Of a stretch of DNA of 64,000 nt, positions 37,825 to 48,536 are shown piece by piece. Below the pieces are notes generated by a model. That model saw nothing but the letters and a program-made list of their open reading frames with translations, was not told the DNA's origin and made no database searches. Position 1 is the first letter of the stretch; the number at the start of each line of letters is the position of its first letter. The stretch is taken from assembly GCA_028713285.1 (NCBI GenBank), contig JAQTOP010000005.1:10682-74681 (forward strand), in the 5' to 3' direction. The translations under genes and the position numbers were made by a program. Origin of the DNA: Terrimicrobiaceae bacterium. Its GTDB lineage: Bacteria; Verrucomicrobiota; Verrucomicrobiia; Chthoniobacterales; JAATET01.

Positions 37825-38562
37825 ATGAAATTGACCGAAATCGTCGCGTATCTGGATGCGGAGCTTCGCACGGCGGAGATCCAGGACTATCCGAACGCGC
37901 ATAATGGCCTGCAGTTGGAGAATGGCGATTCGGTCACACGCGTCGCGTGCGCAGTGGATGCGTGCGAGGCGGTCATCGACGCGGCCTGCGAGGCGAGGGC
38001 GGATTTATTGATCGTGCATCATGGACTGCTGTGGGCCGGAGCGCAGCGAATCGAGGGGGCGCATTATCGCAAGCTCAAGCGCGCGATCGACGCGGGTCTC
38101 GCGATCTACAGCTCGCACCTCCCGCTCGACCGGCACCCGCGCCTCGGCAACAACGCGCTGCTCGCGAAGGCGCTGGGCGTCGGCAAAACCGCTTCGTTTC
38201 TCGAAATCGGCGTCGAGGCGAGAGTGAACCTCACGCTGTCGGTGCTGATCGACCGCGTCGAGCGAGCGGTGGGCGGGCCCGCGCATCTCGCGCCGGGCGG
38301 TCCGGAGCGCGTGCGGCGGCTTGGCATCGTGACGGGCGGCGCCGGCGGCGAGATCGCGAAGGCGGCGGACGCGGGAGTGGACACGTTTCTCACGGGCGAA
38401 GGGCCGCATTGGTCTTACACGGCGGCGGAGGAGTTGGGCGTGAATTTGATCTACGCGGGCCACTACGCGACCGAGACTTTCGGCGTGAAGGCACTGGGCG
38501 CGGAGCTGGAAAAAAAGTTTGGACTGCCGTGGGTGTTCGTCGATCACCCCAGCGGGCTTTAG
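37825..38562 (+). CDS. Nif3-like dinuclear metal center protein (GTP cyclohydrolase 1 type 2 homolog)
   Basis: 'NGLQLEN', 'DLLIVHHGLLW', 'IYSSHLPLDRHP..GNN' and 'DTFLTGEGPHW...AGHYATE'. Confidence 0.85.
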   Translation: MKLTEIVAYLDAELRTAEIQDYPNAHNGLQLENGDSVTRVACAVDACEAVIDAACEARADLLIVHHGLLWAGAQRIEGAHYRKLKRAIDAGLAIYSSHLPLDRHPRLGNNALLAKALGVGKTASFLEIGVEARVNLTLSVLIDRVERAVGGPAHLAPGGPERVRRLGIVTGGAGGEIAKAADAGVDTFLTGEGPHWSYTAAEELGVNLIYAGHYATETFGVKALGAELEKKFGLPWVFVDHPSGL

Positions 38563-39320
38563 ATGGCCGGCATGACGTTTCCGCCGCATACCGGGATGTA
38601 GGCGCCAGAGATGAAGCTCGCCAGGTCGGAAGCGAGGAAGGCCACGACATTCGCGATCTCCTGATCCGTGCCCCGGCGTTTGAGCGGAACTTTCTCTTGG
38701 TAGGTCTGCTGGTGCTCGGTGCCAGACTCGCGGTATTTGTCGCTGATCATCCAGCCGGGCGCGACTTGGTTTACCGTGATCTGGTGCTCGCCGATTTCCT
38801 TCGCCAGCACGCGCAGCACGCCGTCCATGCCGCGCTTGCCCGAAACGTAAGCCGACTGGCTCGGGAAATTTTGCATCGCGCATTCCGTATTGATCGCGAT
38901 CACGCGCCCCGAGCCGCTTGCGATCATGGCGGGGACGAAGGCTTTCGCCATCAGGACATTTTGCAGGACACAGGTCCGAAACTGGCTTTCGTAATCTTCA
39001 ATGCCCTGATCGAGCACCGATACCCAGGAGTATTGAGCCACCGCGTTCGTGACGATGATGTCCGCGGCGCCCAACTGATCGCTCACTGCATCCCGCATTT
39101 TGAAAACGGAGGATTTGTCCGTGATGTCCGCCTGGATGGCAATCGCCCGCCCGCCGCCTGCAACGAGTTCCTCCCGCAGTTCGCGGGCTTTGGTTTCGTT
39201 TTGGAGGTAGTGAATTGCCACGCCGGCACCGCAAGCAGCGAGGGTGCGGGCCATGACCCGCCCAAGCTCGCCGGTTGCCCCGGTAACGACGGCGACTTTT
39301 CCCGAAAGATCGATTTTCAT
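38559..39320 (-). CDS. SDR-family oxidoreductase (3-oxoacyl-ACP reductase-like)
   Basis: 'GKVAVVTGATGELG' (TGxxxGxG), 'NAVA', a catalytic 'S...YVSGK' region, and 'ISGAYIPVCGG'. It lies immediately downstream of, and co-directional with, the 676-aa unassigned gene. Confidence 0.85.
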   Translation of the reverse strand: MKIDLSGKVAVVTGATGELGRVMARTLAACGAGVAIHYLQNETKARELREELVAGGGRAIAIQADITDKSSVFKMRDAVSDQLGAADIIVTNAVAQYSWVSVLDQGIEDYESQFRTCVLQNVLMAKAFVPAMIASGSGRVIAINTECAMQNFPSQSAYVSGKRGMDGVLRVLAKEIGEHQITVNQVAPGWMISDKYRESGTEHQQTYQEKVPLKRRGTDQEIANVVAFLASDLASFISGAYIPVCGGNVMPAI

Positions 39321-39334
39321 GATTGAACCCAAAA

Positions 39335-41365
39335 TTAGCCTTTCTCACGATCGCCAACAAAACCAACGGCGCTTCCTGTGCCCCAGTTGGCCTCGATTTT
39401 TGGCCAGGGAAAATACGACGGGACCGAGGCCCACGGACCGGTAAGAAAAGGAAAGTCGGCATCTGTAAGCCCGTCGATGCTGACCCGGGTATCCTGGGAG
39501 ACGGGAAGGCCGTTGATCAGCGCGTACCGGGGTGTGATACTGCCAGGGGTCCAGGAGGTCTCCAGTTCCAGAGCCGGGCGCTGCGCGCTGGCGGGGCGGC
39601 GATAACGCGTGCGGCGCGTCATCCAGAAATAGTCCGTGAAGAGGCCTGAGGATAATGACTCGATGAAGGCGGCGAGGGACGGATATTCGTCGATGCTTGC
39701 GTGCTCGGCAACGAAACCGCCGAAGACGTTTCGCAGTTCCGCGCAGGTGAACGTGCGAGCAGGGCCTTCGTAAAACGTGCTGCGGAGCACTTCGTAGTTA
39801 TTGATTTTTTCCAGCGTGATTTTCACCGTTTGCGGCTCGGGCAGGAACGCGAGCGGACGGACGGCGATGAGAAGCCGCCCGCGACGGCAGCCCACCCACT
39901 CGCCGTGCGCGACTTCGCCCGACCAGGATTCGCAGGACCGTTTTCCGATGCGGATTTCGTCGGCACCGGCGAAATGCGACGGAAAAATCACCATGTCATT
40001 CAATCGGGTGAGCGGCTGTGGCGGCTGGCCCGCTTCAAAACCGCCCAGGGCCGGTTTGGGAGTCGTCAAAACGAGCGCCGTGGGGCCGGATTGCAGCGTG
40101 ATGAGGTTGGCTTTGGAGCCGAGATTGTCCTGTTCGCCTGAGTTGGAATAGAGGAGGCCATCCGGGCCGGTCGCGGTTTCGATCGTGCCCGGCACCTCCT
40201 CGTTGATGGTGAATTTATGATAGACCGTGCCGACGTCCTTGAAGGACTTGACCTCCGAGGTGCGTTTGTAGGTGGCGACATAATGGGCTGTCTGTTCCAG
40301 GAACCACGGAGTCGAGGAGGTCCCGACAGTAAAGTCCGGCTGCAAAAAGGTCTCGATGCGAATCGGGCGCGCCGGAAAATCCAGCCCCATTCCGCCCGCC
40401 TCCGCGGTGGCCACTGCCTGGAAGGGATAGTTCTTGCGGGCGAACAGTTCCAGGACGCGGGCCGAGGGATGATAGGTTCCGGTGGCATACCAGCATTTCT
40501 CGCTAAGGTTAAATGGAAGATCGCCCTTGTGATGAAGCACCAGGCCGGAACCGGGGTTGAACAATTCCATCGGCGAGGGCCTGACGATGTCCCCCAGCAC
40601 GAACCAAAGCAGGGTGGAAATGCCCGAGGCGTGCGCAAGGGTGTCGATATTATAGGCTCGGGAATAGGGACCAGCCAGAACGCCCATTTCCGGATGAAAC
40701 CTCGCCGCCAGATCCAGCCAGATGCGTTCCTCGATGCCCGCCGCCAGTTCCCTCGCTTCGGGATTCTCGGCATAGTGGGCAATTTTTCCAATCGCCGCGA
40801 GCGTGGCCGCGGAATACGTCGGGGAATTCCATTCGCTGTAAACCCCACGCCGGTAGAGCATGTTGCGAAGCTGACGCAAATTCCAGAGCCCGTGCTCCAC
40901 GGCCTCCGGGTTGTCCAGCAACTCGCCGCCAAGGATCAGGCCCATGGAGGCCTTGGCCGGCATGTTGTCGTTGCCGCCGTGGAATTGATAGTCGGGCCGC
41001 CGGTTCCCCGGCTGGAAGGCAAAGCCATACCGCACCAATTCCTCGAGCTTTTCCCTCACGGCATGGGACATTTTTTCGCGATACACCCTCAAAAGAACCG
41101 CGGCGATGTTGGTATGGAAAATGTCGTAGGGCGCGGGATTCTCCCAGCCCATGTGGGAGATCATCGTATCCCCCGTGAGGATGATCGCATCGGCCAGATC
41201 GTCCAAGCCCTGGTCGTAGAGTCCGCAGCAGATCCAGTAGCGCTCCCTCACCTCTGCCGGCAGGGAATCGGCCGCCCAGTTGCCCGCGGCATCATACCAA
41301 GTTTGCGCCGCGATGACGGCTCGATTTAGAAAAAGCTGAGATCTGCTGGCGAATGTCGAATTCAT
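39335..41365 (-). CDS. Uncharacterised 676-aa protein, paralog A (no family assignable from memory; no signal peptide seen)
   Basis: Long uninterrupted ORF in lower-GC DNA. It shows full-length similarity to the product of 44579..46621, for example 'FHGGNDNMPAKASMGLILGGELL...WNSPTYSAATLAAIGKIAHY...GPYSRAYNID' against 'FHGANDNMPMMASLGLILAGEAL...FNSSTYSAVTLSSAAQIATY...GPQARAYSVD'. Confidence 0.8.
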   Translation of the reverse strand: MNSTFASRSQLFLNRAVIAAQTWYDAAGNWAADSLPAEVRERYWICCGLYDQGLDDLADAIILTGDTMISHMGWENPAPYDIFHTNIAAVLLRVYREKMSHAVREKLEELVRYGFAFQPGNRRPDYQFHGGNDNMPAKASMGLILGGELLDNPEAVEHGLWNLRQLRNMLYRRGVYSEWNSPTYSAATLAAIGKIAHYAENPEARELAAGIEERIWLDLAARFHPEMGVLAGPYSRAYNIDTLAHASGISTLLWFVLGDIVRPSPMELFNPGSGLVLHHKGDLPFNLSEKCWYATGTYHPSARVLELFARKNYPFQAVATAEAGGMGLDFPARPIRIETFLQPDFTVGTSSTPWFLEQTAHYVATYKRTSEVKSFKDVGTVYHKFTINEEVPGTIETATGPDGLLYSNSGEQDNLGSKANLITLQSGPTALVLTTPKPALGGFEAGQPPQPLTRLNDMVIFPSHFAGADEIRIGKRSCESWSGEVAHGEWVGCRRGRLLIAVRPLAFLPEPQTVKITLEKINNYEVLRSTFYEGPARTFTCAELRNVFGGFVAEHASIDEYPSLAAFIESLSSGLFTDYFWMTRRTRYRRPASAQRPALELETSWTPGSITPRYALINGLPVSQDTRVSIDGLTDADFPFLTGPWASVPSYFPWPKIEANWGTGSAVGFVGDREKG

Positions 41366-41600
41366 TGGTGGGAAGGGGTTGAAACTAGAACGGCAGGGGA
41401 ACGGATCAAGATGAAATCACCCTCCCGCCCGGAATGGGTCATTCTCGAGTCTGCACCCGGGATTTTGCCATTGAAGTTGAAGGGAAAATGTTGTCCATGA
41501 TTGGGGCGAAGGGCTCATTGACCATTTAGCTGGCGGATTTCGCCAACTCCCCATACCCTTAAACCTCCTCAGACGAGAAGATTGTCATCAAGTCTGGCCC
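41366..41600. promoter_or_regulatory. Divergent promoter region between paralog A/SDR operon and GH2 operon
   Basis: 235-bp non-coding, comparatively AT-rich spacer between divergently oriented genes. I could not pin down a specific -35/-10 or operator. Confidence 0.4.
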
Positions 41601-43445
41601 TTGTACCCCATGACGCCAACCCCATCCCTCTTTACGCACAACCGAACCGGACTCAGCCTCGACGGCATTTGGAAATTCTGCCCCGACCCCATGCAGCGCT
41701 GCCGCCAGCAAAGGTGGTGGGAGAATCCTTCCAAACAAAATTCGGTCTTCCCCTGTTGGGATCCTGAGGGATTGTGGGAGATTCAAGTTCCTTCCACTTG
41801 GAAGAAGCAGTTCAAGGCGCTGGAGTGGTATGATGGGCATGCGGTTTATTACAGGACTTTCAATAAACCGAAAGAGATACCGTCGTCCTATGAGGCTTTT
41901 CTGGTTTTTGACGGGATTGTTTATGCCTCCGAGGTATTTCTCAATGGCCAGAAGATGGGCGAACACGGCTGGGGATATTCCCAGTTCGCAGTTCGAGTGA
42001 CCGAAACCCTTCAGGAACGCAACGAACTCTTCGTGCTGGTCGAGAACGTCCCCTCGCTGCAGCGAGCCCCCGGAGTACGATTTGACTGGTGCAATGATGG
42101 CGGAATCATCAACGGCGTGAAGCTGGTTTTCGTCCCACGCACATTCATCCAGAATTTCAAAGTCAGCACCGTGCTCTCGCAGGATGCGGTGTCGCTGGAA
42201 TTCGATCTATTCCTTGCATCGCGGGATGCGGCGGCTTGCGAAGAGGTGACGATTGAAATTCCTGAATTGAAGCTAAGTGCCACCGTGAAGGCGGAAGCCG
42301 GCAAGGTCGCCTCGCACAAATTCAGAGTCTCGAAGAACGACGTGAAGCTTTGGTGCCCTGAGAACCCAAAGTTATACGACGTGAAGCTATCGACGCGAAA
42401 TGAGGCCATAGGTGATGAGATTGGCTTCCGCGAAATCAAAACCAAAGGCCACGAAATCCTGCTCAACGGGGAGCCCATCCGACTCTATGGCTTGTGTGTG
42501 CACTCGGAATTCCCCGACACGGGCCGCACGGCCACAGTTGAAAACATCCGAAAGATGGTCGGGAAAGCCGGGGAACTCGGGGTGAACTTCCTGCGTTGCG
42601 CTCATTACCCCTACGCGGAGATATTCGGACGGGAGATGGATCGCGCCGGACTGCTTTGGTGGGAGGAGGTTCCGGTTTATTGGATACCGGCCATTAAGGA
42701 GGAGGAAGTTTCGTCCTTGGTGCTGGGGATGCTGGAGGAAACGATCCGTCGAGATTGGAACCGCTCGAGTCTCATCATGTGGTCGATTTCCAATGAGTGC
42801 TGCTATCGCGACCCCAAGAACCCGATGGATAATAATTATGACTATTGGTTCAAGGCGGCCAGGTTGGTGCGGAAACTCGATCCTACCCGACTGCTGACCT
42901 GTGCGGAATCGGGCAATATCGTTTCCACCAGCACCGCCTGGTCTCCCACGAAGGGAGATGAGTTTACCGGGGTGGGCAAGCCGCAAGTGGAGGAAAACCA
43001 CCGCCCCATGCACACGGATGAATTATACACCCTCTTCGATGTCCTGGCCGCCAATCTTTATGTCGCGAATCCCGGCGAGGAAGCGGTGCTTTATCCGAGG
43101 TTTGTGCGTCTGCTTTCGCCATATAACAAACCGCTCATGCTGAGTGAGTTTGGCTCCATGTCCCTGTTGGGAGCGAAGGTTCCGGATGACGTGCTCGGGA
43201 GCGAGGCTCGCCACGCTTTGATGATTGAAAAGGCCTATGATGTTTTCAAGGAACTGCCGGAAATCACCGGTTATTGTCCCTGGGTTTTGCTCGATGGACG
43301 CGCTCCGATTCATTGGAGATGGTATAATCTGGGAACTGGATTGTTCCGTTACGGATTCCTCAATGAAAACTGGGAGCCCAAGCAGGCGTTCTTCGCCCTG
43401 AAAAAGGGAATCGACCAGGTGAAAAACCATTTCAAGCAATCCTAG
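41601..43445 (+). CDS. Glycoside hydrolase family 2-like enzyme (beta-glucuronidase/beta-galactosidase fold)
   Basis: N-terminal sugar-binding jelly-roll ('LDGIWKF', 'WYDGHAVYYRTF', 'FLVFDGIVYASEVFLNGQKMGEH') and a TIM barrel ('NFLRCAHYPY'). Acid/base 'WSISNECC' (NE) and nucleophile 'MLSEFGS' (E) are retained. Confidence 0.8.
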   Translation: MYPMTPTPSLFTHNRTGLSLDGIWKFCPDPMQRCRQQRWWENPSKQNSVFPCWDPEGLWEIQVPSTWKKQFKALEWYDGHAVYYRTFNKPKEIPSSYEAFLVFDGIVYASEVFLNGQKMGEHGWGYSQFAVRVTETLQERNELFVLVENVPSLQRAPGVRFDWCNDGGIINGVKLVFVPRTFIQNFKVSTVLSQDAVSLEFDLFLASRDAAACEEVTIEIPELKLSATVKAEAGKVASHKFRVSKNDVKLWCPENPKLYDVKLSTRNEAIGDEIGFREIKTKGHEILLNGEPIRLYGLCVHSEFPDTGRTATVENIRKMVGKAGELGVNFLRCAHYPYAEIFGREMDRAGLLWWEEVPVYWIPAIKEEEVSSLVLGMLEETIRRDWNRSSLIMWSISNECCYRDPKNPMDNNYDYWFKAARLVRKLDPTRLLTCAESGNIVSTSTAWSPTKGDEFTGVGKPQVEENHRPMHTDELYTLFDVLAANLYVANPGEEAVLYPRFVRLLSPYNKPLMLSEFGSMSLLGAKVPDDVLGSEARHALMIEKAYDVFKELPEITGYCPWVLLDGRAPIHWRWYNLGTGLFRYGFLNENWEPKQAFFALKKGIDQVKNHFKQS

Positions 43446-43479
43446 AACCGCATAGCCTCTCCATTTCCCACCCTAAATT

Positions 43480-44529
43480 ATGTCCGCTCCCACTCCCAAC
43501 AAAATCCCCATTGCAATTGTCGGTCTGAACTTCGGCCGCTGGATCGTCGCGGATCGCGACAAACCGGAGGGGCTGGGAAAATATTTTGAACTGGTGTCCG
43601 TATGCGATCTCGACCCGGCGCGAGCGCATGACATTGCGACCAAAGCCGGTGTTCCGGCCTGCACGAATCTCGACGAGATTTTGACGAATCCGAAAATCCC
43701 GGTGGTCGGGATATTTACCAGCCCGTCCGGCCGGTCGGATCTGATCCGCAAGGCAATCCGCGCCGGAAAGGACGTGATGACGACGAAGCCCTTTGAGACC
43801 GACGCCGAAAAGGCGGGGGCATTGCTGGAGGAAGCCCGGGCGCTGGGCCGCGTGGTGCATCTCAATTCGCCGGGGCCTCTTGTGCCGCCCGATCTGCAAC
43901 GCATTGAAGAATGGCGCGAGCAGTATCAACTGGGTCGTCCAATTGGCGGACGGGCGGAGGTGTATGCGAGCTATCGCGAGAAGGCCAATGGCAGCTGGTA
44001 TGACGATCCGGACAAATGCGCGGTGGCGCCGATTTTCCGGCTCGGAATTTATGTGATCAACGATCTGGTGCGGCTCTTTGGCGAGGCGGAATCGGCGCAA
44101 GTGCTGAAATCGAGGATCTTTACGGAACGTCCGACGCCGGATAACGCGCAGTTGGGAATCCTGTTCAAGAGCGGTGCGGTGGCGAGCGTCTTCGCCTCGT
44201 TTTGCATCGACGACGGCCAGCCCTACGCGAGCTCGACGACTTTGCATTTCGAGAACGGTACGATCTACCGCAACGTGGGGCGGCTGGCTTTCGGCGGCGG
44301 ACCGAAAGCCCCGACGAAGGTTCATGTGGTCGCGCGTCGGAACGGGGAGCCCGTGATCGAATCGGCGGAATATGCCAATGGCAGCGGCGAGTATCAGTGG
44401 GAGGCATTTTATCGCGCCATTCACGGCGAGAAGTTGGAAACGCCCCGCGAAGTGGTCATCGGAGGATTGCGCATCATCGCGGCAATGGCGCGGGCAGAGA
44501 AATCGGGTGCGACCGAGCCGGTGCGGTGA
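43480..44529 (+). CDS. Gfo/Idh/MocA-family NAD(P)-dependent oxidoreductase
   Basis: Rossmann N-terminus 'IPIAIVGLNFGRWI', 'ELVSVCDLDPARA', 'DVMTTKPF' (EKP-like motif) and a C-terminal alpha/beta dimerisation domain. Confidence 0.85.
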   Translation: MSAPTPNKIPIAIVGLNFGRWIVADRDKPEGLGKYFELVSVCDLDPARAHDIATKAGVPACTNLDEILTNPKIPVVGIFTSPSGRSDLIRKAIRAGKDVMTTKPFETDAEKAGALLEEARALGRVVHLNSPGPLVPPDLQRIEEWREQYQLGRPIGGRAEVYASYREKANGSWYDDPDKCAVAPIFRLGIYVINDLVRLFGEAESAQVLKSRIFTERPTPDNAQLGILFKSGAVASVFASFCIDDGQPYASSTTLHFENGTIYRNVGRLAFGGGPKAPTKVHVVARRNGEPVIESAEYANGSGEYQWEAFYRAIHGEKLETPREVVIGGLRIIAAMARAEKSGATEPVR

Positions 44530-44578
44530 CTCCGTTTCGGCCAGGGCCGACGCCGACTCGAACAAACGGGAAAACATT

Positions 44579-46621
44579 GTGAAGTGGACAGTCGAATCAC
44601 AAAACGCGAGGCGAGGGGCGTTTTACTCCAAAACTCGCGAACATTTGCATGAGGTGGTGGACGAAAATGGGGTCGGAAAGATTCCGCAGTTCAATCCGCC
44701 CTGGCGCGAGCCGGTTTGGATCCTTCCGGCGCTCTATACCGGGCCGCAAGAGTTTATCGACATCGCCAACAAAATGGTGGCGCGTTATCACGACCCGTTT
44801 GCCCCGGACGGAAAAAGCGCGAAAGCTTTCAACATTTTTCAGACCAATCATTTCTCCCATCTTTTGCATCGTTTTGGCGGCCATCTGACGCCTCCGGCGC
44901 GCGAAGTGATGACCTGGCAGGCCGAACAAGCGTGCAAGACGTTGCGCGGATCGGGCCAGCCGGACACGAAATTCCACGGTGCCAACGACAACATGCCCAT
45001 GATGGCTTCGCTGGGATTGATCCTGGCGGGCGAGGCGTTGGGCAATGAACGGGCCATCGAGCAAGGGATATGGAATCTGAACCAATTCCGGCGGCTTTTG
45101 TCGCGCGCGGCGTGGGCGTCGGAATTCAATTCCTCCACTTATTCCGCCGTGACGCTTTCTTCAGCGGCCCAGATCGCGACCTATTCGCGCGACGCGGGCA
45201 TCCGGCAATTGGCGCGGCAGATCGAGCACCGGCTCTGGGCGGAAATATTGCTGCATTACCATCCGGGCACTTTCTGCCAGGCCGGGCCACAGGCGCGGGC
45301 CTATTCGGTCGATCAAGCCGGCCACAACCATTCCGTGCAGGCACTGCTCTGGATGGTCTTTGGCGAGGAATCGACCGGACGCAATATCCTGGACAGTTAT
45401 TTCAACCCGGACGGCACGGAGGTGGTCCATTTCGAGGGAACGTATTTCCAGAACATCGCGGAGTATTGCCACTTCATGGACGCGGACTTTCAAGTGCCGG
45501 AGGAGTTGGCGGACCTGATCGTTCGCCGTCAATATCCGGCCCGGCTTCGCGGACGGGCGGAGATCATGGGCCGCTGTGAAAACATGGCGGCGGAAGGCCA
45601 GACCTGCACTTATATGGAGGAGGATTTTTCGCTTGGCAGCCTGAACGGCCCGTGGGTTGACGGTTCGCAGACGTTGAGCCTTTTCCTTACTTTCAAGCGA
45701 ATCGCGCGCCCTGAAGCGTGGCGCGACGCGGCGACGGCGTTTTTGAAATACATGGCGGACGACGTGAAGATGGGCGCGAAGGACCGCTCCGCGGATGGCA
45801 AATACGAGAGCGACCGGTTCATCCGCAACCTGGGCTGGTTTTACACCATCCAGAAAGACAACGTCGTGGCGGTGCTGGCGACTCCGAATTTGAAGGCTGC
45901 GCCATCGCCAACGAGCGCCTTGAAGTTGAAAGTCGTCTTTCCCGCGCATTATGGACGCATCTCCCGAAGCGTCATCGGCGACGGGCCGGTGATGGATGGC
46001 GCCGCGGGCGAGAGCGCCGAAGTCGTTCCGGTTTCCATCGAAGCAGGCCAGGTGTTCGTTCATCTCCAGCCGCTTCTTCCGACCAGCCTGCCTCGCGCGG
46101 CGGCGGTGCGGTTCGTGCGGGAGAATGAATACGAGGTTTTGGAGCTGATCAACTATGAAGGCCCTGAACGTGCCTTCAGCCGAACTGAACTTGCCCGGGC
46201 CTTGAATGGCCTGGTGATGACCGTGAAGGCAAAAAAGGAATTCGACTCGCTGGAGGAATTTCACACAAAAATGTCGCGCTCGCTCGTCACCGACTACTTC
46301 AGCCACGAACACCGGTTTTTCCTGTTCCAACGGGAGGACGTGGAATTCGACGTGCTCTATTCTCCCGATCCTTTCGGCGCCCAGACCGAGGCCATCGATG
46401 GACGGCACGTGCCGCGGCCGATTTTTCAGTCGAACCAAATCGACGTGGAGCGCCTTCCTTTCATGACTGGTCCGGTGGAGCGCAACCAGGCGTTCTTCCC
46501 TTGGGGAGATACGCTCGCCATGCCTCCGTGGCCAAATGCGTGGATGATCGGGTCGCGCGGATTGCCGGGCGAAGGAAATTATGCACGGCGAAACGACAAT
46601 CCCAACCTGGATTGTCTTTGA
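44579..46621 (+). CDS. Uncharacterised ~680-aa protein, paralog B
   Basis: Same family as 39335..41365 along the whole length, also in the C-terminal third ('YEVLELINYEGPERAF...LVTDYF' against 'YEVLRSTFYEGPARTF...LFTDYF'). The GTG at 44579 is the first plausible start after the upstream stop. The start is inferred. Confidence 0.75.
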   Translation: MKWTVESQNARRGAFYSKTREHLHEVVDENGVGKIPQFNPPWREPVWILPALYTGPQEFIDIANKMVARYHDPFAPDGKSAKAFNIFQTNHFSHLLHRFGGHLTPPAREVMTWQAEQACKTLRGSGQPDTKFHGANDNMPMMASLGLILAGEALGNERAIEQGIWNLNQFRRLLSRAAWASEFNSSTYSAVTLSSAAQIATYSRDAGIRQLARQIEHRLWAEILLHYHPGTFCQAGPQARAYSVDQAGHNHSVQALLWMVFGEESTGRNILDSYFNPDGTEVVHFEGTYFQNIAEYCHFMDADFQVPEELADLIVRRQYPARLRGRAEIMGRCENMAAEGQTCTYMEEDFSLGSLNGPWVDGSQTLSLFLTFKRIARPEAWRDAATAFLKYMADDVKMGAKDRSADGKYESDRFIRNLGWFYTIQKDNVVAVLATPNLKAAPSPTSALKLKVVFPAHYGRISRSVIGDGPVMDGAAGESAEVVPVSIEAGQVFVHLQPLLPTSLPRAAAVRFVRENEYEVLELINYEGPERAFSRTELARALNGLVMTVKAKKEFDSLEEFHTKMSRSLVTDYFSHEHRFFLFQREDVEFDVLYSPDPFGAQTEAIDGRHVPRPIFQSNQIDVERLPFMTGPVERNQAFFPWGDTLAMPPWPNAWMIGSRGLPGEGNYARRNDNPNLDCL

Positions 46622-46700
46622 AAACGAGTGTTCGACAGACCTTCAGGATCCTTGAGTCCAGGGCATGCCCGAATCGATCGTCCGTAACAGAGGTCAGGCG

Positions 46701-47531
46701 ATGAATTCCAGGTTGGACATTGATATTTCATTCTGCTGGCCGATTGCCGAATCCGTGACGCCCGAGGAAGGGTTGGCGCGTTTGCGGGAGGCTGGTTTTG
46801 AAGGGATCGAACTCTGGCCCCCGTCTCTGGAGAAATTTGGCGCGCAACGCTGGGCCACCGCGCTGGAGGCCACCGGAATGCGCTGTTTCCAACTTTGTCC
46901 GTATTTTGATTTTGTGCATGGGCCGGAGCGCATCGAGCAGAGCCGGGCGGATCTCCTGGCGTATCTGGAGGCGGCGGAGGCGATGAAATGCGAGCGGCTG
47001 CGCGTCTTTACGGGCCCCCCCTGGGGAGAGGGGGTGGTCGGCGCGTCCGAAGCGACGGAGGAACAGTGGCAGGCCGCCATCGAGGGATTGCGCGAGTTTT
47101 GTGATGTGGCGGCGCAGCGCGGGGTGGAGCTTTGTTTGGAATGCCACGAAGGCAGTCTGATGGAAGACGCCCCCTCTGCGCTGCGCATCTTGAATTCCGT
47201 GGATCGGAGCAATCTGACGGTCAATCTCCAGATTCCTTTTCCGAACGAGGACTGGAGAGTAAGCCTCGAAAAACTTGCGTCGCATACCACGCACATTCAT
47301 ATCCACAATTGGACGGAAGGGCCCGGCGCGGGGGAGCTGACTTTCCTCTCCGAGGGCGTATTCGATTGGCTTCCGGTGCTGGAGCGGATCCGCCGGGAGC
47401 GAAACCATGCGTCCCTGTGTTTGTCGATCGAACATGCGGATCATCATGGACGCCATGATCCCTGGGAGACCGCCCGCCGCGATGGACCATATTTGAGCCG
47501 GCTGCGGGGTGCATCATTACGCCCGGAGTAA
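46701..47531 (+). CDS. Sugar phosphate isomerase/epimerase (xylose isomerase-like TIM barrel, AP_endonuc_2 fold)
   Basis: 'AGFEGIELW', 'CERLRVFTGP', 'GVELCLECHEGSL' and 'HIHIHNW' are typical metal-ligand-bearing strands of this fold. Confidence 0.8.
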   Translation: MNSRLDIDISFCWPIAESVTPEEGLARLREAGFEGIELWPPSLEKFGAQRWATALEATGMRCFQLCPYFDFVHGPERIEQSRADLLAYLEAAEAMKCERLRVFTGPPWGEGVVGASEATEEQWQAAIEGLREFCDVAAQRGVELCLECHEGSLMEDAPSALRILNSVDRSNLTVNLQIPFPNEDWRVSLEKLASHTTHIHIHNWTEGPGAGELTFLSEGVFDWLPVLERIRRERNHASLCLSIEHADHHGRHDPWETARRDGPYLSRLRGASLRPE

Positions 47532-47897
47532 GCTCTGCCGGGTTGTCCGGCCGTCAAGGAAGGCCGAAGTATGTGCTAACTCGGAGGATCGCGGCGGGTG
47601 AATAGTCGTTTTCGGGCGGATGCAGAGCGTCGGACCGTGGATGAACGGAACCAGGTCACTCCGTCGCAGGCTTGCGGTTGTCTTCAGGCGTGTCGCAGCA
47701 GGGGGGATCGCCGGGATACGGGCCATTCGAAAGGAAGGATTTCGCCTCTTCCGGAAGTGCCGGCCGCCAGTTTCCGCCACTCAAACGCCGGGGCGCGCCA
47801 CATTTGTGAGCGGGGAGTCGCACCCTTTGCAGTCATCGCATCCCAGGCAGCTTGAGTATCGAGAGTATTGCTTGAAGTTGATTTTGCCGCAGACAGG

Positions 47898-48536
47898 ATG
47901 GTCGCCGTGAGTCCCTTGTCTTCGCGCATCCGCATGTTGAGGCTCCGGCAGCAGCGCACTTTGTCGGACGTTGCGAAGCGATGCGGGTTCACCGCCAGCC
48001 TTCTCTCCAAGATCGAGTCAGGGAAGACGTCCCCGCCGATTGCGACGCTTGCAAAGATCGCGGAAGCACTCGGGGTGGGCCTTGGGAACCTGCTTGATGG
48101 AAAACAGGACAGCTCGACGGTTCTGACCCTCGCCCAACATCGGGCGGTGAATTTGGCGACGGAGACGGATAAAGGATACGGTTTTCATCTCCTGGCCGCG
48201 GAGCGGGCGGATAAAATCATGCAGCCGTTCATTTTTGTCGCGGAACGCGGCAGGATCAAACCGGGCGTGATGGCCCATTGCGGGGAGGAGTTCGTCTATG
48301 TTCTGGAGGGCAGGATGCGATACAGCGTCGGCAAGATCACCTATTCACTTGGACCGGGCGACTCGCTCTATTTCAGCTCGGAGGAGGAACATGACCTCGA
48401 GCCCGTGACCGCAAAGGTCAAATATCTCGCGGTTTTTGTCGAACGGGTTCAGCCCGTGAAGAAGGCTTCGCCAACAACGAAAAGCAGGGCGCGGCGGCGG
48501 CGCGATCCGCCAGCATCGCCGGCCAGCCGGGCGTGA
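47898..48536 (+). CDS. XRE-family transcriptional regulator with C-terminal cupin domain
   Basis: HTH 'IRMLRLRQQRTLSDVAKRCGFTASLLSKIESGKTSPPIATLAKIAEALGV', then cupin 'HCGEEFVYVLEGRMRYSVGKITYSLGPGDSLYFSSEEEH'. The basic C-terminal tail is atypical. Confidence 0.8.
   Translation: MVAVSPLSSRIRMLRLRQQRTLSDVAKRCGFTASLLSKIESGKTSPPIATLAKIAEALGVGLGNLLDGKQDSSTVLTLAQHRAVNLATETDKGYGFHLLAAERADKIMQPFIFVAERGRIKPGVMAHCGEEFVYVLEGRMRYSVGKITYSLGPGDSLYFSSEEEHDLEPVTAKVKYLAVFVERVQPVKKASPTTKSRARRRRDPPASPASRA

Follow-up and report, generated by a model that had tools for sequence, protein, structure and literature searches.

Here we describe a seven-gene island in the genome of a Terrimicrobiaceae bacterium, located in a 64,000-nt window (the whole stretch of DNA that was analyzed, and to which all unprefixed coordinates below refer) of contig JAQTOP010000005.1. 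We put the odds at about even (roughly 0.5) that it is a horizontally acquired island for cytoplasmic oligosaccharide catabolism, in which a cleavage core, comprising a GH2 enzyme plus two paralogous proteins (paralogs A and B), is combined with a locally recruited keto-sugar module, i.e., a Gfo/Idh/MocA protein, a TIM barrel protein of the AP_endonuc_2 family, and an SDR. The seventh gene encodes an XRE-cupin regulator. We consider the paralog family, which no public protein-family library describes, to be a candidate new family of carbohydrate-active enzymes because its modeled structure is near those of polysaccharide lyases (PLs) and its members keep company with sugar importers, a subgroup of GH2 enzymes, and Gfo/Idh/MocA proteins.

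The genes form two divergent operons separated by a spacer of exactly 235 bp. Paralog A and then the SDR are encoded on the minus strand, and the SDR gene is translationally coupled to that of paralog A (its start is only 2–14 bp from the paralog A stop). On the plus strand, the GH2, Gfo/Idh/MocA, paralog B, and TIM barrel genes follow each other with gaps of 34, 49, and 43 bp, which is consistent with a single operon, and the XRE-cupin gene starts 336 bp past the TIM barrel gene. This layout agrees with a preliminary description made from the DNA letters alone: the spacer was recovered exactly from the map of open reading frames (ORFs), the minus-strand order from ORFs and Pfam searches, and the plus-strand order from ORFs, Pfam, and NCBIfam searches.

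Conservation of the island across genomes

The island was compared with 80 genome loci that carry members of the paralog family, as well as with 12 metagenome or related-genome loci (L-numbered in what follows; genes in related loci were predicted using a simple custom caller). The set of seven genes is repeated in no other locus (tblastn against the 80 loci, with further loci examined). Judged from ortholog identities, the conserved unit is the GH2 gene plus paralog A, which recur in three independent loci. In L088, the orthologs are 65% (GH2) and 57% (paralog A) identical to the island proteins. In L023 the values are 44% and 55%, and the two genes are directly adjacent. In L090 they are 55% and 59%, and the genes have the same divergent layout as in the island. 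This last locus is also the one in which paralog B forms part of the unit, because it carries a 54% identical ortholog 7 kb from the paralog A ortholog. Tandem or multiple copies of family members occur in L014, L018, and L086.

In 10 of 46 lineages, defined as clusters at 60% identity, a Gfo/Idh/MocA gene and a family member are direct neighbors, at most 350 bp apart (the statistic is descriptive, as the lineages are not fully independent). The two genes are on the same strand in 19 of 20 cases, and equally wide slots further off hold Gfo/Idh/MocA genes in only two to five lineages each. The adjacent proteins are mostly 20%–30% identical to each other, so the association holds at the family level only. 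Orthologs of the island Gfo/Idh/MocA protein have a family member nearby in L040 and L096, and do not in L095 and L097. No AP_endonuc_2 gene was seen in L095, L096, and L097, i.e., in three of the four contexts of this ortholog that were examined.

The remaining genes of the island have few or no counterparts beside the family elsewhere. An iterated AP_endonuc_2 hidden Markov model (HMM) found matches in only six loci (five from Cohnella/Paenibacillus and one marginal), and the AP_endonuc_2 family falls outside the top 25 neighbor families, so that it was rejected as a general partner. One of the Cohnella cases, from Cohnella endophytica, has a family member within an ABC-transporter operon that also includes five Gfo/Idh/MocA genes and a TIM barrel gene. 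The SDR and the XRE-cupin regulator were likewise rejected as conserved partners, given that phmmer found neither in the 80 other family loci. Thus, the part of the preliminary description that interpreted the locus as an oxidation/elimination pathway largely fails when synteny is checked. Linkage elsewhere holds for GH2 and paralog A (as orthologs) and for Gfo/Idh/MocA (as a family), and not for the TIM barrel or the SDR.

The wider surroundings of the family were tallied using Pfam for 119 neighbors within 2.5 kb, taking one locus per lineage. ABC sugar permeases (8), Gfo/Idh/MocA proteins (7), GntR/LacI-type regulators (6), SASA esterases (5), and the solute-binding proteins SBP_bac_8 (4) and SBP_bac_1 (2) predominate, and GH20, GH88, GH95, GH172, and GDSL esterases are also found among the neighbors.

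Two further features of these surroundings should be noted. A recurrent, essentially unannotated protein of ~1200–1450 aa adjoins family members in several phyla (L086:1438-5502, L087:1-3914, L088:3180-7223, L035:13219-17277, and L051:3-4301). It shows only faint GH42M, BetaGal_ABD2, and GH2_N matches and may be another partner enzyme of the family. In the most distant clade (L071–L084, from Opitutaceae, Ignavibacteriota, and Bacteroidota), the family member is found with a heparinase II/III-like (DUF4962) protein as well as an unannotated ~500-aa protein, seen in 14 loci.

Predicted fold of the paralogs

Paralog A (39335–41365, minus strand; 676 aa) and paralog B (44579–46621, plus strand; 680 aa) are 30% identical across 625 residues (E = 8e-85), so the paralogy that was proposed from the letters alone is borne out. 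They belong to separate, old, and well-populated clades of one family. Neither has a family match in Pfam or NCBIfam or a match in the PDB (phmmer), and 10 distant family members also lack any Pfam domain.

The start of paralog B required correction. A longer ORF with an ATG start opens at 44372 and overlaps the 3′ end of the Gfo/Idh/MocA gene by ~160 nt, and the protein in the source annotation (P0121) is 585 aa in length and looks 5′-truncated. Based on comparison of lengths, the true start is most likely the GTG at 44579 rather than the ATG at 44372, because the resulting 680 aa fits the 680–695 aa of the homologs.

The AlphaFold2 model of paralog A, generated with the family alignment as input (pLDDT 94.7, pTM 0.94), has an N-terminal α/α toroid (helices within residues 5–309) and a C-terminal β-sandwich (strands within residues 315–668). 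An arrangement with the toroid first and the sandwich second is the lyase-type domain order. When the model was searched against the PDB using Foldseek, the top matches, with a probability of 1.0, were DS-epimerase 1 (6hzn), Alg17c (PL17; 4ojz), PL8 lyases (hyaluronate, chondroitin AC, and xanthan lyases), and GAGase VII (8khw). The family shares with these enzymes the two domains and their order. It differs from them in that the fold matches are remote (TM scores of 0.37–0.43, ~10% identity, and root-mean-square deviations of 12–15 Å) and no HMM or profile–profile comparison links it to them. Going by this model, the paralogs appear to be bond-cleaving enzymes with a lyase fold and a role of their own, and thus candidate glycan lyases or hydrolases. 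Such a fold does not bear out the earlier suggestion that they supply the missing step or steps of an oxidation/elimination pathway.

Residues that are invariant across 57 family sequences include H129, N132, D133, N134, R172, E178, Y184, R214, H224, R236, Y238, and E322, and D578 of paralog A is likewise an invariant acidic residue. In the model, H129 and Y184 are 55 residues apart and are located at the N-termini of successive helices, and N132, N134, H224, R236, and Y238 are likewise placed at N-terminal ends of helices. The H129/Y184 spacing resembles that of the catalytic His/Tyr pair of PL15, PL17, PL21, and DS-epimerase 1, and we use the resemblance only as a lead. If it is meaningful, the paralogs would catalyze their reaction via the conserved His and Tyr, as these enzymes do. 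The proton removed would be one that neighbors an electron-withdrawing group, such as the carboxylate of a uronate or a ketone installed by the Gfo/Idh/MocA enzyme.

The PL15 and PL17 oligo-alginate lyases are cytoplasmic enzymes. The paralog family appears to resemble them in this respect, given that no signal peptide was found in ~240 family members (using a crude regular-expression test).

The invariant acidic residues (D133, E178, E322, and D578) could also be those of a hydrolase. In that case, the paralogs would be retaining or inverting enzymes of a new glycoside hydrolase (GH) family, and the Gfo/Idh/MocA, TIM barrel, and SDR proteins would catabolize the released monosaccharide in an IolG/IolE-like way. 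Such an arrangement is compatible with the neighbors of the family, which are mainly GH-type genes and sugar importers, with the weak similarity of the TIM barrel to the IolE and AsbF dehydratases, and with fold matches of paralog A to toroid/sandwich hydrolases of families GH127 and GH146. However, the latter score lower (TM 0.21–0.25 by Foldseek) than the lyases and epimerase, the domain order is that of lyases, and the many lineages with directly adjacent, same-strand Gfo/Idh/MocA genes point to a closer role than catabolism far downstream. We therefore find a new hydrolase family very improbable.

The GH2 enzyme and the question of an acidic substrate

The GH2 gene (41601–43445, plus strand; 614 aa from a TTG start) encodes a protein with the Pfam domains Glyco_hydro_2_N, Glyco_hydro_2, and Glyco_hydro_2_C. 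Its closest match in the PDB is the beta-galacturonidase AqGalA (7vqm; 2.8e-74), followed by gut GUS/GalAse enzymes (6d89, 6d8k, 6ncy, and 6d1n; E-values of ~1e-70 to 1e-74). It shares with this clade the three-domain architecture and the two catalytic Glu residues, E399 (within WSISNE) as the acid/base and E516 (within LSEFG) as the nucleophile, each of which aligns with AqGalA and the orthologs. The preliminary description, which had reported that the catalytic NE and E are retained, was accurate on this point. By its sequence relationships, the protein is an exo-glycosidase of the beta-glucuronidase/beta-galacturonidase clade. Unlike AqGalA, in which the carboxylate-binding N-x-K motif reads N-R-K, the island enzyme has F582-R-Y584 at this position. 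The motif is also F-R-Y in the 65% identical ortholog of L088, and it is G-L-Y in the 44% identical ortholog of L023. This replacement indicates that the substrate of the GH2 enzyme may not be a simple glucuronide, and it detracts from the argument that the substrate is acidic.

The clade to which the GH2 enzyme belongs, together with the fact that the structures nearest to paralog A are in every case those of uronate lyases or of an epimerase, raises the prospect that the paralogs are exo-acting oligosaccharide lyases for an acidic glycan (glycosaminoglycan-, alginate-, glucuronan-, or exopolysaccharide-like). The GH2 enzyme would then remove terminal uronates, the SDR and/or the Gfo/Idh/MocA protein would reduce a 4-deoxy-5-keto-uronate (in the manner of DEH reductase/KduD), and the TIM barrel would perform a ketol-isomerase step. 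The many invariant Arg residues of the family, its lack of signal peptides (like the PL15/PL17 enzymes), and the translational coupling of the SDR to paralog A are all in keeping with this, as is the presence of GH88, GH20, and heparinase II/III-like neighbors in some family loci. Even so, we regard such a pathway as unlikely. In addition to the missing N-x-K motif of the GH2 enzyme and the lack of profile-level homology of the paralogs to any PL family, the SDR is a generic FabG-like protein that is not found beside the family elsewhere, and the neighbors include no conspicuous KduI, KdgK, or KdgA genes.

A probable keto-sugar module around paralog B

The Gfo/Idh/MocA protein (43480–44529, plus strand; 349 aa; Pfam GFO_IDH_MocA, 60 bits, plus the C3 domain) belongs to a subfamily of more than 1400 proteins (at E ≤ 1e-40) in which TKP replaces the EKP motif and Tyr191 is invariant. 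Profile searches of the PDB gave only generic matches (1zh8, DgpA at 6e-12, and GFOR) and no close characterized relative. The E-value of the DgpA match ranges from 5e-6 to 6e-12 across PDB searches. The protein scores far below the cut-offs of curated NCBIfam models (28 bits versus 650 for LevoglcsnDh and 26.6 versus 650 for BT_2159_fam) and, by both the curated models and the PDB searches, it is not in any characterized glycoside 3-dehydrogenase group. Its domain content predicts an NAD(P)-dependent sugar dehydrogenase/reductase.

For the TIM barrel protein (46665–47531, plus strand; 288 aa; Pfam AP_endonuc_2, 103.8 bits, 1.6e-29), the best sequence match in the PDB is AsbF, a 3-dehydroshikimate dehydratase (5.7e-10), and no known eliminase was matched at the sequence level. 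The structural model is of moderate confidence (pLDDT 65.9, pTM 0.71). Its fold matches list YcjR first, and include ketose 3-epimerases, IolE, and (in 49th place) AtOGE, although the similar E-values do not discriminate among them. All of these are enzymes that enolize a keto compound at a metal site. We propose that the protein is a metal-dependent enzyme that enolizes a keto-sugar, and that it may be an eliminase, dehydratase, or epimerase.

The SDR (38559–39332, minus strand; 257 aa; Pfam adh_short_C2, 144 bits, 5.7e-42) has generic FabG-like SDRs (SiaM and FabG; 1e-34 to 1e-36) as its best PDB matches, and a role as keto-sugar reductase is proposed. The Pfam scan of the seven island proteins revealed neither a DUF1080 domain nor a second TIM barrel. 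Conceivably, the SDR could stand in for the missing second reductase of 3-keto systems.

The 3.5-Mb genome includes 11 Gfo/Idh/MocA genes and 11 AP_endonuc_2 genes. With only 11 of each, it is unlikely that the two genes that flank paralog B are there by chance. Elsewhere in the same genome, there is another directly adjacent, same-strand pair of Gfo/Idh/MocA and AP_endonuc_2 genes (G000:C57:32597-33740). Considering the protein families involved, the Gfo/Idh/MocA, TIM barrel, and SDR genes probably constitute a chemically coherent keto-sugar module that is specific to the island and only loosely echoed elsewhere.

Several characterized systems make use of the same protein families. Those that act on 3-keto-glycosides include the AL/BT2156-2160 clusters from Alistipes and Bacteroides together with the P2B11 glucuronide cluster (bioRxiv 10.1101/2024.03.25.586180), the LgdA/LgdB1 system for levoglucosan (PMC7676230), DgpA/DgpBC and AtOGE (PMC10628242), and YcjS/YcjR of E. 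coli. The island resembles them in having a Gfo/Idh/MocA gene and an AP_endonuc_2 TIM barrel gene in one operon with a reductase gene nearby. The top fold match of its TIM barrel model is YcjR, a 3-keto-glucoside 4-epimerase, in a ranking that does not separate it from ketose epimerases or IolE. The island differs from these systems in lacking orthology (27–28 bits against 650-bit cut-offs of the curated models), in having a single Gfo/Idh/MocA protein, a single TIM barrel, and no DUF1080, and in that a lyase-fold protein of 680 aa separates the pair, which is not conserved in related loci. IolG/IolE (myo-inositol 2-dehydrogenase and 2-keto-myo-inositol dehydratase) and AsbF offer a second comparison. 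The two protein families are the same, with an oxidize-then-beta-eliminate logic, AsbF is the best sequence match of the TIM barrel, and IolE structures are among its fold matches. On the other hand, the island proteins score only 36.9 bits versus a cut-off of 355 for iolG (TIGR04380) and 22.9 versus 290 for iolE (TIGR04379) in NCBIfam, there are no other iol genes, and the surroundings are glycan-active enzymes.

The route suggested in the preliminary description can be worked out on the model of LgdA/LgdB1, DgpA/DgpBC, and AL/BT2156-2160. The Gfo/Idh/MocA enzyme would oxidize C3 of a glycoside, the TIM barrel would cleave the glycosidic bond by beta-elimination, and the SDR would reduce the keto-sugar. 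The paralogs would be left with auxiliary steps (hydration or isomerization) or with pre-processing of the glycan. Parts of this proposal fare well. The locus is a coherent carbohydrate locus, Gfo/Idh/MocA adjacency recurs (10/46 lineages), and the TIM barrel resembles enolizers of keto-sugars, including YcjR and AtOGE in its model. Between them, a Gfo/Idh/MocA enzyme, an AP_endonuc_2 protein, and a reductase could in principle carry out oxidation, elimination/hydration, and reduction. The positions of the first two, flanking paralog B in a genome with so few copies of each, also fit, and an AP_endonuc_2 gene is near a family member in L087 and the Cohnella loci. Other parts do not fare well, and overall we doubt that the route is correct. 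Both the Gfo/Idh/MocA and TIM barrel proteins are far below the curated LgdA, BT_2159 family, and IolE models, the TIM barrel has no sequence-level match to a known eliminase in the PDB, and DUF1080 and a second TIM barrel are missing from the seven proteins scanned. The TIM barrel partner is not conserved with the family and is lacking from most contexts of the Gfo/Idh/MocA ortholog that were examined. Furthermore, a 676-aa lyase-fold protein would be odd as a mere hydratase.

A proposed two-module pathway and the points against it

The reading that we give about even odds, i.e., an acquired island with a conserved cleavage core and a recruited keto-sugar module, can be spelled out as follows. 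In the first module, the GH2 enzyme and paralogs A and B would take apart an imported oligosaccharide, with each acting on a different linkage. The substrate would probably be acidic or otherwise decorated. In the second, locally recruited module, the Gfo/Idh/MocA enzyme would convert a hydroxyl group of a sugar into a ketone, the TIM barrel, as a metal-dependent enzyme, would enolize the resulting keto-sugar, leading to elimination, dehydration, or epimerization, and the SDR would reduce the product. The substrate of this module could be either the still uncleaved glycoside or the sugar once it has been released.

A number of observations, some of them introduced above, weigh against this two-module pathway. 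For the core, the lyase and epimerase folds are remote matches, the profile of the 57-sequence family alignment finds nothing in the PDB, profile methods connect the paralogs with neither a PL nor a heparinase-like family, and the putative correspondence of H129/Y184 to a catalytic His/Tyr pair is one of residue spacing and secondary-structure position. The heparinase II/III-like (DUF4962) neighbors bear no relation to the family alignment (hhalign probability of 0.1). With respect to the substrate, there is the replaced carboxylate-binding motif of the GH2 enzyme, and genes for 2-keto-3-deoxygluconate (KDG)/uronate catabolism are not prominent in the neighbor tally. For the keto-sugar module, Gfo/Idh/MocA adjacency is modest (22% of lineages) and involves nonorthologous subfamilies, the TIM barrels near family members (in L087 and the Cohnella/Paenibacillus loci) are only 18%–24% identical to that of the island, and the SDR is not conserved. 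Finally, as had already been noticed from the letters alone, there is no transporter gene within the island.

We also considered a bolder variant, in which the paralog family would be "oxidation-primed" glycoside lyases. Here, the lyase fold would abstract a proton that has been acidified by a ketone installed by the Gfo/Idh/MocA enzyme on a neutral sugar. Hydrolysis-resistant linkages of imported oligosaccharides would be cleaved in this way, and the TIM barrel and SDR would recycle the keto or unsaturated product. If true, this would join the worlds of polysaccharide lyases and of 3-keto-glycosides. We think it quite unlikely.

Probable acquisition and regulation

The housekeeping genes that border the island are NIF3 and YchF at one end and ClpC, McsB, and McsA at the other. 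Its GC content is 58.4%, compared with 63.9%–64.5% in the flanks, and GC at third codon positions is 66%–75% in island genes versus 79%–87% in flanking genes. The paralog family was found in only 3 of 41 related genomes, including the genome itself, and in none of seven congeners. The shift in GC and the patchy presence among relatives indicate that the island was probably acquired horizontally. NIF3 and ClpC are nowhere adjacent in the five congeners examined, and thus a clean, empty insertion site could not be demonstrated.

The divergent spacer (41366–41600; GC 52%) separates the paralog A start at 41365 from the GH2 start at 41601 and, from its position, is the expected site of the putative promoters of both operons. 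Within it, the direct repeat GGATTT(T/C)GCCA occurs at 41460–41470 and 41535–41545, 75 bp apart. The two copies may serve as operator half-sites that are recognized by the XRE-cupin protein or by another regulator. Scans for promoters, terminators, and operators found nothing convincing besides this short repeat, and no consensus sigma-70 site within the 235 bp. The XRE-cupin protein (47868–48536, plus strand; 222 aa; Pfam HTH_3, 4e-13, and Cupin_2, 7e-11) has PuuR as its nearest NCBIfam model (48 bits versus a cut-off of 211). Given these domains, it is likely a small-molecule-sensing regulator of the island, which would sense a sugar or metabolite and control the divergent promoters.

Distribution of the paralog family and its significance

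An HMM of the family was used to scan 1.84 billion representative proteins. With E ≤ 1e-3 as the threshold, this yielded 1691 clusters (at 50% identity), and at least 308 of them reach E ≤ 1e-30. The members are hypothetical proteins of Verrucomicrobiota, Armatimonadota, Lentisphaerota, Planctomycetota, and Paenibacillaceae (Cohnella and Paenibacillus). Those of the paralog B clade, from Phycisphaerae, Armatimonadota, Victivallales, and Verrucomicrobiota, are 50%–73% identical. Full-text literature searches yielded nothing specific on the family or on the pairing of a lyase with a Gfo/Idh/MocA protein.

Some members have unusual features. One (P0402, 813 aa) has a GNAT acetyltransferase domain fused at its N-terminus. 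This fusion, along with the SASA and GDSL esterases, GH20, and GlcNAc 2-epimerase found as neighbors, hints at acetylated or amino-sugar substrates. The Terrimicrobiaceae genome itself encodes two very distant relatives, one of 585 aa (C103:15138-15437; L003:976-2733) and the other of at least 1083 aa (C41:22870-23136; L004). A SE(Y)NSPTY-like motif is common to both, and neither contains a Pfam domain. At its N-terminus, the longer protein is extended by a long stretch rich in Gly/Thr/Ala, and it may be a secreted protein.

Knowledge of the activity of this family would make it possible to annotate hundreds of "hypothetical" genes in glycan-degrading bacteria from soil, freshwater, and the gut, and it might also explain the abundance of Gfo/Idh/MocA genes in such genomes. 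Because there are cultured bacteria that carry family members (Cohnella, Paenibacillus, Cerasicoccus, and Coraliomargarita), among them Cohnella endophytica, Cohnella ginsengisoli DSM 18997, Paenibacillus pasadenensis DSM 19293, and Cerasicoccus frondis NBRC 105381, the question is directly testable.

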